DNA of 64,000 nucleotides, from the NCBI GenBank assembly GCA_963664115.2, contig CAXWPJ010000010.1, forward strand, positions 288,001-352,000, in the 5' to 3' direction. The notes under the pieces were generated by a model. It did not search any database and was not told the origin of the DNA. It was given only the letters and a program-made list of their open reading frames with translations. Source of the DNA: Terriglobia bacterium. GTDB lineage: Bacteria > Acidobacteriota > Terriglobia > 20CM-2-55-15. The stretch's first letter is position 1. Each line of letters opens with the position of its first letter. The translations under genes and the position numbers were made by a program. Below are positions 4,539 through 53,870 of the stretch, one piece after another.

Positions 4539-4642
4539 GGAAGGGGCGGACACTTCATGCGACATTGTGGCCCGGCAAGTGTATTTCGGCTGAAGTTTCC
4601 GTCCCTTCAGCACTCTGTCGCATGAAGTGTCCGTCCCCTTCC
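4539..4642. repeat. GGGG(A)CGGACAC-tipped palindrome (family E, copy 1)
   Basis: GGAAGGGGCGGACACTTCATGCGACA ... TGTCGCATGAAGTGTCCGTCCCCTTCC with an internal third arm at 4591-4608. Confidence 0.75.
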
Positions 4643-4688: not shown

Positions 4689-5492
4689 ATGCGCCCAAGC
4701 GCTCGTTCACTCAGATTCCTGGTCGGGGCCGGCCTTCTGCTTGCGCCTGTCGCGTCGGTAGCGCGACAGACCCCGCAGATACGAGAAAAAACGCACCTTG
4801 AGGAAGTCGAACAACTGCTTTTTGACCACGTGAACGCGGAGCGTGTGCGCGAGGGACTTAATCCACTGCGGACCGAACTCATCCTCGTCGAAATTGCCCG
4901 TAGCCACACACTGGACATGTTGGAACGGGAGTTCTTCGATCATGAGAATCCCGACGGTCAAGGGCCGGCGGCGCGCGTTGGCCGCTTACATCGGACGCTT
5001 GTCGGCGAGGTTTCGGAAAATGTCTGGACCGAAATCCGGTCGGAAGCTATAGACCCGGCTGCAATGGCGAAAAACATCATGGAGGGACTGATGAATAGTC
5101 CCGGACATCGAAGAAACATACTGACGCCTGCTCTGACCCATTTGGGGCTCGGGGTTTACTCTTCGAGTGGACTGGCCGTGATGACGACCGAATTCATGGT
5201 GACGCAACTCTTCGGGGCGGTCCGGAGTTATTTAGAGGAACCCCTTCCAGAAAGCCTTTTGCTCAACCAGGTCGTGCGTTTCAGATTGCGGGATCTGGCG
5301 AGCGATCGTACAGACGCTGAGTACTACGACCTGTGGTCCCCGGAGGAGCAGCGCCCGGTCATCGGACCCACCCCTATAGGCCGGTCGAGGTTGGAGGTCT
5401 CTGCTGGAACCTTTCAGTTGCGCTTCCTCTACCCGAGCTCCCAGCAGGGCCAGTTCGATGCCGTCTCCGCACCCTACGTCACGGTTCGTTAG
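4689..5492 (+). CDS. CAP/SCP-domain exported protein
   Basis: VNAERVREGL, ARSHTLDM..FFDH, ENV and LMNSPGHRRNIL motifs. Confidence 0.85.
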   Translation: MRPSARSLRFLVGAGLLLAPVASVARQTPQIREKTHLEEVEQLLFDHVNAERVREGLNPLRTELILVEIARSHTLDMLEREFFDHENPDGQGPAARVGRLHRTLVGEVSENVWTEIRSEAIDPAAMAKNIMEGLMNSPGHRRNILTPALTHLGLGVYSSSGLAVMTTEFMVTQLFGAVRSYLEEPLPESLLLNQVVRFRLRDLASDRTDAEYYDLWSPEEQRPVIGPTPIGRSRLEVSAGTFQLRFLYPSSQQGQFDAVSAPYVTVR

Positions 5493-5720
5493 TGTCCTCG
5501 GATCGACGTTCTCCATATAAGATTTCGCGCTAGCGGGATTAGTCCCGGTTATCAATAACATCCGGACGTGTTTTCTGAAAAATCATCGGGGCTTTCGAAA
5601 ATTCTAACAACCGGATAGACTCCTATGTTCCGTCCAACACCTCGGACGAGATCCCCATTGGAGATGGAGGCGCCGATCCGGTCGGTTGCTTCTCATAAAA
5701 CAGTTCAAGGAGAAAGTCTG

Positions 5721-13907: not shown

Positions 13908-14112
13908 GTTAAGAGCGGGTCTTTTGGAACCGGAACTCTGGCGCAGGCCCTGAAGAACCCGCAGCGTTCCTCGCTGCGGGTGGACCGCTTTCAGAGTAAA
14001 GACGCGGTAGCCGAGGCGTCAGTCCAATAGGATGATCGGATCAAACGGGAAAAGTCGTTCCTTCGACTCTCACCACAGGCTGCTAGGGAATCCGAAACGC
14101 ATAGCTCTTAAC
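13908..14112 (+). mobile_element. Family F hairpin element, partial copy F1
   Basis: CCCGCAGCG-TTCCT-CGCTGCGGG hairpin, GCGGTAGCCGAGGCGTC motif shared with F2-F4; bounded by GTTAAGAGC/GCTCTTAAC inverted repeat. Confidence 0.65.
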
Positions 14113-39101: not shown

Positions 39102-39549
39102 ACCGCAAAGACGCAAAGGGTAGGAAGGAATAGCTTGTCTGAGATTCGGCGGGATGAACTCTGCTGGATTCGCAATCACAGTGTCGCTAAGCCATCTATT
39201 TGTGATTGAAAGAGGCACCGGCAAGGCAATCTGCCAGATTGCAAGTTCGTGAGATCGGATTTCGCTCGGTCGTTCAATCGGCTGACCATCTCTGTCGCGT
39301 TCCACGCGTGGGCCGAACGACCGTCGACCCTCTCCATCATCCTGATGGAGAGGCTTATTGGGAATTACGGGATGTCGTAGAAACTGGTCCCAGACAAAAC
39401 CCGCAGCGATCCTCGCTGCGGGTGAACAACGAGGCGGAAGCCGAGGCGTTTAGGGTAATAAGATAATTGGATCAATCAAGCGACATCGCTCGGGCGACAT
39501 TGACGACGGACACAAGTCTATCTCTTCTTGACCTTTGCGCCTTTGCGGT
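39102..39549 (+). mobile_element. Family A copy A3 containing a nested family F element
   Basis: A-type ends 448 bp apart rather than about 175; A core broken after GCTAAGCCATCT. Confidence 0.75.
39244..39475 (+). mobile_element. Family F hairpin element copy F2
   Basis: GATTTCGCTCGGTCGTTC..GAACGACCG, CCTCTCCATCATCCTGATGGAGAGG, CCCGCAGCGATCCTCGCTGCGGG, AACGAGGCGGAAGCCGAGGCGT. Confidence 0.75.
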
Positions 39550-45703: not shown

Positions 45704-45746
45704 CAGTTCATGATTAACGTCAAAGCCGGCAGCGCTACGTCGCGCC

Positions 45747-45955
45747 GTTCGCAAAAGATTTCGCTCGGTCGTTCTTACGGCCATCCTGGCCGAACGACCG
45801 GCGACCCTCACCATCATCCTGATGGCGAGGCTTATGGGGATCAGCGGAATGTCGAAACCGTTCCCGAAAAGGTCTCGCACCGGTCCGACGGTGCGAGTGG
45901 ACGGCTTTCAGATTAACGAAGCGGTAGCCGAGGCGTCAGAGTAAGCGGATGATCG
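45747..45955 (+). mobile_element. Family F hairpin element copy F3
   Basis: Same ordered motifs as F2; hairpins GGCCATCCTGGCC, CCATCATCCTGATGG, CTCGCACCGGTCCGACGGTGCGAG. Confidence 0.75.
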
Positions 45956-47184
45956 TCCAACTTCTTCTAGTCCTTCTCGTTCAAACTGCGGCAGTTGACA
46001 CGCCGAATCCGCTAGAGGAACTCTACGCCGAAGCCATGACAGCGATGGAGGCCGGAGACTGGACCGAAGCGATATCCAGGCTCGAGGCGATCTTGCTCGA
46101 GGACCCGTCTCACGTCAGCTCCCGTTTTAATCTCGCTGTATCGCTCGGCGAAGCGGGGCAAACGGACCGTGCTCTGGAGTCGTACCGCGCCATACTTGAT
46201 GCAGACCCCACGATCTTCGAGGCCCGGATGAACCTAGCCATCCTCATGCACGAACATGATATGTCCGATGACGCGATCGTGGAGTTTAGCGCAGCGGCCC
46301 GCCTGCGGCCGGAAGACCCGCTGCCTGCGCTGTACCGGGCACAGCTGCTCGACCAGAGCGATCGCATCGACGAAACGATCCAGGCATATGAGGTCGTTCT
46401 CGGCATCGATCCCGAGCTTGTGGAGGCGCACGAGCGATTGGGATTCATTTACCGGGACATGGACGACACCGATCAAGCCATCCGGGAGTTCAGTGAGGCG
46501 ATACGCCTGGGATCGCTTGCCCCAGCAATGTTTGTAGCGGCCGGAGATATCGAATCCGATCGAGACAATCTGGATGCCGCGCGCGAGTACTACGAAAGGG
46601 CCGCCGCACTCGTCCCAGGTGACGCCGACATCCGGCTTCGGCTTGCGCTGGTCCTAAGAAACCAGGAACAGCTGCCCGAAGCGATTGCGATCCTTGAGGA
46701 CCTGGAAGAATCGGACCCTGTTCTGGCTGAGGCATACATGGCGGCCGAGATGTACGCCGAAGCGGCTGCCGTGTTTGAGCGTCTGACGGCGCAGAATCCC
46801 GAAATCTCAGATTATTGGTACATGTTGGGCCGGGCGTACTTCCTGACAGGTATGAGCGAGCAGGCAGAGTTCGTCCTTCAACGAGCCATGAGCATCGAAC
46901 CGGAACGGGTCGCGGGTTGGGGAACACTGGCGGCAATCTACATGGAGCGCGAAGACTGGCAGAGTGCTGGCGTCATGCTGCTCCAGTACGTCACTTTAGA
47001 GCCGGATCACGCGCCTTCCCACTTCGCAGTCGCGCTCTGTTTCGACAATTTGGGAGAATTCGAAAGGGCATTGATGCACTATAATAGGTTCATTGAGCTC
47101 GACGACGGATCGGACGATGTCCGGTCTTTTCAGGTCAGACAAAGGGCAGAATCACTTGAGCGCTATCTCAGTGAAAACGAATAG
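45949..47184 (+). CDS. Exported TPR-repeat protein
   Basis: Signal peptide and many tandem TPR units. Confidence 0.8.
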   Translation: MIVQLLLVLLVQTAAVDTPNPLEELYAEAMTAMEAGDWTEAISRLEAILLEDPSHVSSRFNLAVSLGEAGQTDRALESYRAILDADPTIFEARMNLAILMHEHDMSDDAIVEFSAAARLRPEDPLPALYRAQLLDQSDRIDETIQAYEVVLGIDPELVEAHERLGFIYRDMDDTDQAIREFSEAIRLGSLAPAMFVAAGDIESDRDNLDAAREYYERAAALVPGDADIRLRLALVLRNQEQLPEAIAILEDLEESDPVLAEAYMAAEMYAEAAAVFERLTAQNPEISDYWYMLGRAYFLTGMSEQAEFVLQRAMSIEPERVAGWGTLAAIYMEREDWQSAGVMLLQYVTLEPDHAPSHFAVALCFDNLGEFERALMHYNRFIELDDGSDDVRSFQVRQRAESLERYLSENE

Positions 47185-51852: not shown

Positions 51853-51854
51853 GC

Positions 51855-52127
51855 GAGTGTTCCGACTTAAAACTGCATTACTCGATAGATTTGCCATCTT
51901 CCGAACCGAAGCGATCATTTTATTCCACCGACGCCTCGGCTCCGCCTCGTTGTCCACCCGCACCGTCGGACCGGTGCGGGTTGTTTTGGGAACTGCTTCA
52001 ATTTTCCATCGATGCCTATTGGCCTCGCCATCAGGATGATGGCGAGGGTCGCCGGTCGTTCAGACAGGATGTCTGATCGAACGACCGAGCGAAATCTTAT
52101 GTCGCAAACTTCTGATTCGCGACACTC
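51855..52127 (-). mobile_element. Family F hairpin element copy F4 (apparently full length, 273 bp)
   Basis: Reverse-complement of the F2/F3 motifs; imperfect ends GAGTGTTCCGA / TCGCGACACTC; fills the gap between the SpoIID-like gene and miaA. Confidence 0.75.
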
Positions 52128-53870
52128 TTAATAGACCCTTTCTATCTCAATTCCCCGGTAGTAGGTCTTCAGAATTTCTTCGGCAGAAGCACCGTCGATC
52201 GCCATGCCATAGGCCCCTACCTGACACAGACCGACACCATGTCCCCAACCGCCTCCAAAGAAGCTCATTCCCAACAGCTCGCGATCGGCATTGCGTTCTT
52301 CGTCGATGTACACAAGGCTGTCGCGCAGACTGAAAAGTGTTCGCAGGCGGGAGCCTTCGATAACGCGCTCCCCATCCGTCCCTCGCACTTCGACCCGCAG
52401 GGCCCGGTTCGAGGGCCCCCGGGAAAGGATGACGATGTCATCCAGGTTCCCGATGTTGAGCGCACGGATTGCCTGATCCAGTTCTTCGCTGCTCCGATGA
52501 GTCTGCCAGTTGGCCAGGGGCGAGTAACGATCCGCTGCCGGACTCATCGGGCCGGAACGGTACACGAGTGCTTCGATCCGGTCGTCTATGATGCGCAGTT
52601 CCATGCTTTCACCGCCCAACCAAACCCCCTGATCCACAGGGATTCTCTCATCGCCAATTCTTCTGAAAACGGCCGCGTCGGGGGCCAGACTCAGTTGGCG
52701 GATTTCGGCACCGATGCGAGTTTCGAAAACTTCCCCATCCCAGTGGATCAACCGGGCATCCTGCCATTCGAATACGTTCTTTCTCAGCAGCAGCCGGAGA
52801 AGGACATCCTGCATCCGGTTCTCATCCGTCGTCGACAACACACCTTGTTCCTGCAGAAACAGGAGATCGGATTCGGCGGGTACGGTTGGAAAGAATTGGC
52901 TTTTGATGAATGACGCCAGCTCCTCCGCGCTCGTGCCGGAAGGAGAATCCACATTGGTGATCCCCAGGAACCGGCCTGCAGAGGCAAAGTCATCCACTCC
53001 GGCGATACCCAGCAAGCCCTCTTCCCAGTTTCTGTAAACAGTCGTCGACTCGAACGGTTGAGGGTCGGGATGTTCGTAGTGGCAGATCGTCGATACGAGA
53101 TAGGGCACGGCCTCGCCAAAAACGTTTTCCGCGTCCTCGGTCCGGCCACCGCAGGTCGAGCTGTACAGCGCGTTGATCGGCTCTCCCTCGTAAGTCGCAA
53201 TCTGGCCCCGCGTTTCTTCGATCGCCTGAGTGGCGAGAGGATGCTCGGTGTCGAGTCCTCCATAGACCTGGCAGAAATCCGTGTCACAGATATCGAATCC
53301 CTCGTCTTCGAATTGTCCAAGATTTCGGACGATGTAGGTTCTTGCCGCCACGGACTGAGCTTTCAGGGCCTCAAGCTCAGGAAAGGTATTCGGACCGAGT
53401 TCGTTGGGGACCACGCCCAGCAAATACGCCTCCAGGGGTAATTCATTGACGAGCGTCAGCGACCCGCGAGAAGTGCCCCGAACCTCAAGACCACCGCGAT
53501 AGGCACTACCGTCGACTCGGAGGGGGGCGTCACCGGGTTCGACACGGATCGCAGTCGAGGGGTCCATAGGCCGCAGGAATACGCGCTCGTCGTCGGTTTC
53601 GACCCCGATACGCGTTTCCAGGTCGTCTCTGTTGAACGGGCCCTCACCCTGAGCAAGGGCAATCACGATCAAAAATTCCGCCCGCCGTGTGGAGATCCCC
53701 TCGATCACAAAGGGAGCACTTGAACTCAGTGTGAATCCCTCAACGTTGCGCTCAATGCCGATCCGTACGGTTGGCTCCGCAGGTAGCGAGACCTGCGACA
53801 ACAGCACAAACCCTAACAACAACCGCAACCGGCCCAATCCCCCGATGCCTCTAACTTTCAACATTTTCAT
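52128..53870 (-). CDS. SpoIID/LytB domain protein
   Basis: LEAYLLGVVPNE, ALKAQSVAARTY, CQVYGG, GWGHGVGLCQVGA. Confidence 0.9.
   Translation of the reverse strand: MKMLKVRGIGGLGRLRLLLGFVLLSQVSLPAEPTVRIGIERNVEGFTLSSSAPFVIEGISTRRAEFLIVIALAQGEGPFNRDDLETRIGVETDDERVFLRPMDPSTAIRVEPGDAPLRVDGSAYRGGLEVRGTSRGSLTLVNELPLEAYLLGVVPNELGPNTFPELEALKAQSVAARTYIVRNLGQFEDEGFDICDTDFCQVYGGLDTEHPLATQAIEETRGQIATYEGEPINALYSSTCGGRTEDAENVFGEAVPYLVSTICHYEHPDPQPFESTTVYRNWEEGLLGIAGVDDFASAGRFLGITNVDSPSGTSAEELASFIKSQFFPTVPAESDLLFLQEQGVLSTTDENRMQDVLLRLLLRKNVFEWQDARLIHWDGEVFETRIGAEIRQLSLAPDAAVFRRIGDERIPVDQGVWLGGESMELRIIDDRIEALVYRSGPMSPAADRYSPLANWQTHRSSEELDQAIRALNIGNLDDIVILSRGPSNRALRVEVRGTDGERVIEGSRLRTLFSLRDSLVYIDEERNADRELLGMSFFGGGWGHGVGLCQVGAYGMAIDGASAEEILKTYYRGIEIERVY

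Follow-up and report, generated by a model that had tools for sequence, protein, structure and literature searches.

What is the element that lies between a gene with a spoIID domain and an IPP-transferase (miaA-like) gene in this stretch of 64,000 nucleotides (the window), and why do its hairpins carry the same GGA triplet in their loops? Alignment to a family consensus, with Pfam matches of the neighboring genes, places a complete copy of the element, family F, at 51854-52128 with its GGA strand on the plus strand. The sequence-only reading had described an inverted copy at 51855-52127. That copy is present, and its extent is to be corrected to terminal inverted repeats plus CTAG. On the plus strand, the copy begins with a decayed terminal inverted repeat of the IS630 left-end type that includes a degenerate CTAG (51854-51876). 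A −10-like hexamer follows (51913-51918; GATCAT, GATTAT, or GATAAT in the family) where the left ends of parent IS630 elements have their transposase promoter, and may serve as a promoter. A conserved box (51930-51954) is closed by a short covarying helix, P4, with the top covarying pair. Hairpin 3 (51956-51981) has GGA in its loop, hairpin 2 (52023-52047) has a CAGGAUG loop, and hairpin 1 (52050-52091) has a 4-nt bulge and again a CAGGAUG loop. The copy closes with a decayed inverted repeat of the IS630 right-end type (52105-52128), where the family consensus keeps the C-terminal RTSDSGH-stop of the transposase in frame. The special string pointed out earlier at 52064-52072 is present, ACAGGATGT. 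It has one base less than the SELEX core ACARGGAUGU and equals the CsrB repeat CAGGA(U/A/C)G as given in PMC7652899.

Other copies in the window have their GGA strand on the minus strand. These are a copy with a long hairpin-1 tip (39234-39516), a copy with partly deleted ends (45735-45970), and a partial copy with hairpin 3, the box, and one end (13918-14086). The four copies, their ordered motifs, and the compensatory pairs listed earlier are all found in the window sequence. An orphan end with the inverted repeat and the first core bases (5489-5530, plus strand) had been missed. The statement that every loop keeps TCC is true of the window, where all 10 loops of the four copies do so, but not of the family: 27 of 42 copies in this genome keep all three and 38 of 42 keep at least two.

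An iterated profile search (nhmmer) of this 4.89-Mb genome gave 63 matches to family F, 42 of them near full length. BLAST found the family in all four congeners and weakly in one of 36 other relatives. Covariance-model matches numbered at least 54-81 per congener, with at most 81 candidates scored per genome. Outside the genus, the model matched 50 and 34 times in two genomes of another genus and once in a third, and there was no match in 27 of 35 genomes from the host's taxonomic family. A 23-mer box pattern gave nothing in 400 genomes of the phylum; this pattern is insensitive because it matched only one place in this genome. The two sister-genus genomes contain half-elements in REP-like arrays with no detectable inverted repeats. 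Their hairpins 1 (AUGGAU) and 3 still carry GGA although loop size changes, and hairpin 2 does not. At two loci of genome G022 (L328 and L329), tandem units of about 280 bp with hairpin 3 and the box alternate in orientation in a BIME-like manner, again without detectable inverted repeats.

Family F is almost certainly a non-autonomous IS630-type MITE of about 280-305 bp. It is bounded by CTAG and inverted repeats of about 23 bp that match autonomous IS630 elements of other bacteria. In a flank alignment, these decayed repeats lie beyond hairpin 1 by about 35 bp and beyond the box by about 70 bp, and many copies of the congener G002 still have them intact. Both ends are kept within 5 mismatches in 38 of 169 near-full copies, and the copies keeping both ends are 264-322 bp long and have no transposase. 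CTAG is the consensus tetramer at each end (TA target duplication); the duplication is taken from the consensus because the bases of single copies have decayed. A 25-mer of the end, searched in one genome per species, matched at least 120 loci. Among the matches listed there are 117 distinct ends, at least 7 of them on complete elements of 1145-1180 bp and at least 37 on MITEs shorter than 400 bp with unrelated hairpin cargos, and the remaining 73 have no second end within the DNA examined. Both ORFs tested from the seven autonomous elements are IS630 transposases (267-271 bits against a cut-off of 100). The GGA strand of the family F consensus ends with the same in-frame RTSDSGH-stop as these two ORFs and is therefore the sense strand of the parent IS.

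The sequence-only reading had not recognized a named family and had set down beforehand that a match to a known IS-end family would count against it. The ends do match such a family, IS630. It had also considered a hairpin substrate for an ssDNA/RNA-binding mobilizer. As far as tested, the evidence favors a DDE transposase acting on inverted repeats, not HUH. Its view of a mobile non-autonomous element is borne out by the IS630 ends, the CTAG sites, and the empty sites described below. In the Rfam search that it had proposed, no known family matched any copy, at the gathering score or at E values up to 10.

The age of family F is near the radiation of the genus. The 52-kb site is filled by family F in G002, has a different inverted-repeat MITE in G001, and is empty in G003 and G004, where the element is absent and one degenerate tetramer is kept. 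The 39-kb site is empty in G003 and filled in G002, and the site of the 45-kb copy is likewise filled in G002. There are 35 DDE_3 matches in this genome, and those inspected carry other ends. With one query, no cognate transposase was found in the genus. IS630 transposases in four of five genus genomes are at most 54% identical to the query over full length, and again those inspected have other ends. The missing transposase would fit a family that is now fossil. Family F is an old, miniature, fossil IS630-type transposon with decayed ends and with its inner hairpins and GGA loops kept.

Several neighboring mobile elements were also observed. A single IS630 end is found on both sides of at least 37 short cargos that differ from one another (L067, L072, L075, L090, L103, L108, L116, L126, L147, and others), nearly all of them hairpin-rich, in records from Acidobacteriota, Planctomycetota, Proteobacteria, Actinomycetota, and Chloroflexota. 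An AAGGCG...AACG motif is common to 5 of the 37 cargos among the matches listed and resembles a permuted form of the F box. It seems that IS630 ends serve REP-like hairpins as a general carrier. At F ends, CTAG has repeatedly been the insertion site of younger IS630 elements and of other IS630 MITEs (G000 C2:407381, C7:77193, C9:547802, C9:830971; C10:180330; and G002 L045, L049, L051, L053, L369). CTAG is scarce in this genome, with a 6.5-fold deficit (2910 vs. 19112), and given this scarcity and the repeated insertions, F ends act as landing pads. A second palindrome family with GGACGGACACTTC arms has 120 arm matches genome-wide, for example at G000 C10:180220-180280 and at about 4540-4640 of the window. 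One such palindrome was inserted into hairpin 1 of an F copy.

The core of family F is very probably under real constraint. The alignment to the consensus comprised 169 near-full copies, with 42 from this genome and 80, 22, 8, and 17 from the congeners (90, 22, 14, and 23 sampled). The 80 copies of G002 were picked by a hairpin-2 motif and are biased, and the copies of this genome were found without a loop filter. Divergence, counted as difference from the column majority, is 32.3% at the ends and 26.6% in the linkers of this genome's copies, and 6.2% in the stems and 6.7% in the box. The loop TCC is changed at 25 of 360 positions (6.9%). The other loop bases of hairpin 3 vary by 50% and the hairpin-1 bulge by 24%. 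For the 47 copies of G001, G003, and G004, divergence is 12.7% in TCC and 27.6% in the linkers. The 38 copies chosen by their ends have 13.7% at the ends, 19% in the inner linker, 5.0% in the stems, and 7.5% in TCC. When the copies of 24 cross-species same-site pairs were compared, the ends differed by 0.41-0.44, the linkers by 0.29-0.42, and four-fold codon sites of the neighboring genes by 0.33-0.42, with 0.06-0.14 for the stems (hairpin-1 base 0.06; hairpin 2 0.12, and its loop 0.07). The conservation of the stems, the loop GGA, and helix P4 is 3-5-fold stronger. The decayed ends of the family are a built-in neutral clock, which makes the constraint on the core measurable, and this contrast with ends and linkers bears out the earlier claim that structure and loops are constrained. 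The constraint is not universal because about eight orphan ends in this genome have lost or decayed cores. There is no consistent correlation between the loss of GGA and the general decay of a copy.

The fold of family F has z values of −4.3 on the GGA strand and −5.4 on the TCC strand. Among 50 copies, 15 of 37 pairs were changed on both sides, compared with 6.3 in shuffles. The best covarying pair is not in the hairpins described earlier but in P4, the short helix closing the box, which is new here. P4 has only 3-4 pairs, 20-35 nt apart, and both of its variable pairs are kept in 142 of 150 copies, in three states. The stems are 10-17 bp long. There are 108 compensatory doubles where 12.7 would be expected, and transversions make up 29 of 46 events. 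Several copies have an inverted loop (7 listed, of which at least one is an overlap artefact and two are a duplicated pair), and one hairpin arm has been rewritten to a longer perfect palindrome. Template switching is described as producing compensatory doubles and inverted loops without selection (10.1101/2021.04.15.439925). The covariation is for this reason weak evidence for RNA, and part of it can be mutational. A G-U strand bias is absent, with 49 events on the GGA strand and 38 on the TCC strand (p = 0.28). A DNA GNA-triloop was ruled out because, among the loop bases of hairpin 2, the middle G is conserved best (changed in 2 of 169 copies) and the first G worst (changed in 22 of 169).

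Copies at the same site have more derived alleles in common than randomly paired copies do (mean quantile 0.27, p = 0.002), so most same-site pairs are old orthologues. Subfamily markers disagree in 8-16 of 24 same-site pairs, and all four combinations occur in 553 of 612 marker pairs. Variants therefore move between copies or recur. One stem variant is present in 19 of 42 copies in this genome and in 2 of 80 in G002. Some same-site copies are opposite in orientation (G000 C11:101834 vs. G002 L191; G000 C6:291604 vs. G002 L227), by either inversion between the ends or independent insertion.

We tentatively propose, as a possibility that falls short of being probable, that the GGA loops are kept because family F is transcribed and its RNA binds CsrA. 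An IS630 transposase supplied in trans, now absent, would have moved the family. A predicted promoter inherited from the transposase could then drive the GGA strand of many copies, and the transcript would be an RNA with three GGA loops. Such an RNA may bind CsrA and could titrate it beside FliW. A more complete version is that a dead IS630 MITE family has been domesticated, with 60-120 dispersed copies under the old transposase promoter, homogenized by conversion, as a distributed CsrA-sponge RNA in a FliW-type bacterium. This version is unlikely. If it is true, it shows how transposon debris can give rise to Csr antagonist RNAs beyond the gammaproteobacteria.

The sequence-only reading had suggested looking for csrA and fliW, and both are present, in flgL-fliW-csrA. 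The csrA located there is the one that passes the curated cut-off. For a second CsrA, the profile match stops at residue 43, without the conserved C-terminal RNA-binding stretch. The second, stand-alone csrA-like gene (L002, G000 C9:507406-507534) is without the usual arginine motif and is present in most genomes of the taxonomic family. There are six short flagellin genes (G000 C2:992140, C4:31640, C9:22073, C9:72865, C9:629475, and C9:633045). Four of the six leaders have, by eye, GGA hairpins of the CA-N-GGA-UG type, as CsrA targets do, and two near-identical copies do not obviously have them. Hairpins 1 and 2 of family F read CAGGAUG, with CAGGAAG and CAGGACG as common variants. Variation affects the base that follows GGA in 38 of 169 copies and the A that precedes it in 5, a pattern that fits the CsrB repeat consensus, CAGGA(U/A/C)G (PMC7652899). 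Among 108 other intergenic hairpins, a loop with GGA/TCC is present in only 9. The −10-like hexamer occupies bases 55-60 counted from the IS-left-type end, with about 90% conservation at four of its positions, and TATAAT or TATAAC stands at base 57 in two of five parent IS left ends. This hexamer would drive the GGA strand. On that strand there is no conserved −35 and no clear terminator.

The long stems (10-17 bp), the presence of FliW, the missing G-U bias, and the GGA-less subfamilies count against a CsrA sponge. The same holds for the excess of compensatory doubles and the inverted loops, the second CsrA without its RNA-binding stretch, the lack of a conserved −35 and of a clear terminator, the orphan ends with lost or decayed cores, and the host-gene orientation and GGA-loss counts given below. 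Most SELEX ligands of CsrA are reported with at most 4 contiguous pairs and with hexaloops (PMC7652899). FliW is described as anti-correlated with BarA-UvrY, the activator of Csr sRNAs, with Acidobacteria among the likely FliW users (PMC4682653), and in Campylobacter titration is attributed to FliW and flagellin mRNA (PMC4894983). A heterologous screen reportedly found many CsrA homologues unable to repress a GGA target (PMC13443453). Spread has also occurred in subfamilies that lack GGA, either in hairpin 2 (17 of 169 copies) or in the long hairpin-1 tip. Of the 35 family-level genomes, 8 have a covariance-model match, and each of these 8 carries csrA; in two complete genomes without csrA the model has no match. 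This co-occurrence is uninformative because 22 of 24 such genomes carry csrA. Dedicated CsrA-antagonist sRNAs are known from gammaproteobacteria, and FliW bacteria are thought, in these accounts, to rely on the FliW protein (PMC4682653) or flagellin mRNA (PMC4894983). If family F RNA does bind CsrA, a FliW lineage would have a sponge that was born from a transposon and is spread over many loci. Mobile GGA-hairpin repeats, for which bioRxiv 10.64898/2026.09.22.753630 describes the connection of mobility with regulation as unresolved, would then have a concrete origin as well.

Orientation relative to host genes had been called mixed. Both strands do occur, but the distribution is not neutral. 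A co-directional host transcript reads the TCC strand in 57 cases and the GGA strand in 14 across five genomes, by our own gene calls and tblastn; the copies are not independent, and 37 vs. 5 come from G002. The counts for this genome alone are 15 and 9 (63 matches). An IS630-A control shows no orientation bias (9 vs. 10), and replication strand was ruled out as the cause (30 vs. 33). Loss of GGA is equal whether or not the host gene reads the GGA strand (41/236 vs. 29/182). Since the host reads mostly the TCC strand and GGA loss is independent of host reading, a CsrA role needs a promoter of family F's own. Such a GGA-strand promoter would explain the rarity of copies firing into a downstream gene. 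A 3′-UTR role of the TCC strand explains the orientation bias equally well. Six metatranscriptome runs hold small shares of this organism, as unstranded contigs only. Summed depth over hairpins 1-2 of the 52-kb copy reached up to 155 and 35 in two runs of one study, compared with 2-7 on most flanks, and summing over about 60 copies and related strains can give this. Two runs of another study have one unstranded contig each over the 52-kb copy, although genes of this organism are present at 99+% identity in one of these runs (X1), and the two studies conflict.

Family F could also maintain itself at the level of DNA, by arm-to-arm template switching with short conversion tracts or through a hairpin-recognizing REP-style mobilizer, with GGA from the founders and no role for CsrA. 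The excess of doubles with their transversions, the inverted loops, and the arm rewritten to a longer palindrome all favor this. The four-combination marker pairs, the markers that differ in a third to over half of the 24 same-site pairs, and the stem variant common here and rare in G002 do so as well. Half-elements in REP-like arrays in two genomes of another genus, and the at least 37 unrelated hairpin cargos bracketed elsewhere by the same IS630 ends, point in the same direction. However, unbiased arm-to-arm repair would not be expected to lower per-site divergence, and conversion should also homogenize the 41-nt inner linker and the GGA-adjacent loop bases, which vary 19-50%. Helix P4 still pairs in nearly all copies in spite of its few, distant pairs, neither Y1 transposase gene is bracketed by family F (one box fragment is near one of them), and the bias toward host transcription is left unexplained. 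Maintenance at the DNA level is somewhat unlikely. A neutral fossil, in which conservation of the core is only apparent and comes from ascertainment and alignment, is very improbable. Discovery of the copies through their cores, selection of the G002 sample by the hairpin-2 motif, and the orphan ends with lost cores would fit it, but the inner linker lies within the searched core and decays like the ends. The same pattern is found in copies chosen by their ends and in same-site pairs. The end-chosen copies, the same-site pairs, and the divergence values largely refute this reading.

The strand that host genes read bears on a further explanation, an ERIC/REP-type 3′-UTR element whose co-transcribed TCC-strand hairpins protect, process, or end host mRNA, and whose loops would be important as UCC or to some protein besides CsrA. 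In 133 of 160 copies with a call, a gene is directed into the start of the TCC strand, and convergent gene pairs flank 34 of 63 matches vs. 383 of 2339 gaps. The slightly better fold of the TCC strand and the purine-rich internal loops of the box on that strand are also in its favor, and co-transcribed 3′-end MITEs that affect mRNA stability are described in PMC3184786. It is nevertheless quite unlikely, as it leaves the same triplet in three different loops and the CsrB-like variation unexplained, and there is no G-U bias toward the TCC strand. Counter-selection of a GGA-strand promoter or a polar signal before genes would give the same orientation bias. Binding of CsrA by family F RNA stays our preferred, tentative reading. 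If there is no such binding, family F is a clear case of hairpin cores surviving beyond transposon ends.

The bacterial MITEs of the RUP, Correia/NEMIS, and ERIC type, reviewed in PMC3184786, are presumably linked to IS630. Such IS630-derived MITEs are like family F in being shorter than 400 bp and without transposase, with inverted repeats of autonomous IS630 and TA within CTAG at both ends. They are also intergenic, enriched at gene 3′ ends, foldable, and matched by empty sites in relatives, and structured, transcribed 3′-end MITEs are already described (PMC3184786). Family F shows the tested defining features of these MITEs except a present cognate transposase. It differs from them in that its ends have near-neutral divergence while the hairpins, the loop GGA, and the small helix are conserved across species, and its variants are shuffled. 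A search of titles and abstract openings, covering few subscription journals, found no IS630 MITE with selected GGA loops. The Bacillus bcr1 repeat is likewise mobile and transcribed, with compensatory changes that keep a multi-hairpin structure, transcription of family F being predicted only; bcr1 has 5-bp target repeats and no GGA-loop constraint reported in PMC3184786.

That mobile GGA-loop repeats serve as multivalent Csr/Rsm sponges has been put forward in print, as a hypothesis, for TwoAYGGAY (Rfam RF01731; PMC2864571), a motif extended further by bioRxiv 10.64898/2026.09.22.753630. From these accounts, TwoAYGGAY and family F are both multi-copy intergenic GGA-loop hairpins with very variable copy number and mobile-like spread, and the relatives of family F in another genus have the AUGGAU loop. 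TwoAYGGAY is characterized by two AYGGAY-loop hairpins on a common basal stem, whereas family F has three separate hairpins with AGGAU/NNGGAN loops and no shared basal stem, as well as IS630 ends and a FliW-type host. RF01731 has no match in this genome even at an E value of 10. The CsrB/CsrC and RsmX/Y/Z sRNAs, as described in PMC7652899, share with family F several CAGGA(U/A/C)G hairpin loops per molecule and a csrA in the genome. Several conserved GGA loop motifs on one strand and a csrA with GGA-hairpin targets, which mark membership in the CsrB/Rsm group, are both found here. Unlike these sRNAs, family F is dispersed in about 60-120 transposon-derived copies with three sites each, and it has long stems, no Rfam match, a host with FliW, and a promoter that is only predicted.

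REP/BIME/REPIN elements (PMC3733652) are similar to family F as GC-rich intergenic palindromes with a convergent-gene bias, and half-element arrays are found in the sister genus. Family F differs in having no GTAG/CGTC tag at the hairpin foot, no RAYT bracketed by it, and IS630 inverted repeats. A HUH/RAYT mobilizer is unsupported, with two Y1_Tnp matches in the genome and neither of them bracketed by family F. At G000 C10:490081-493158, a broken nucleotidyltransferase toxin-antitoxin-like gene pair has a Y1 (RAYT-like) transposase gene on each side, the two being near-duplicates, and a fragment of the F box lies about 300 bp behind one of these transposase genes.
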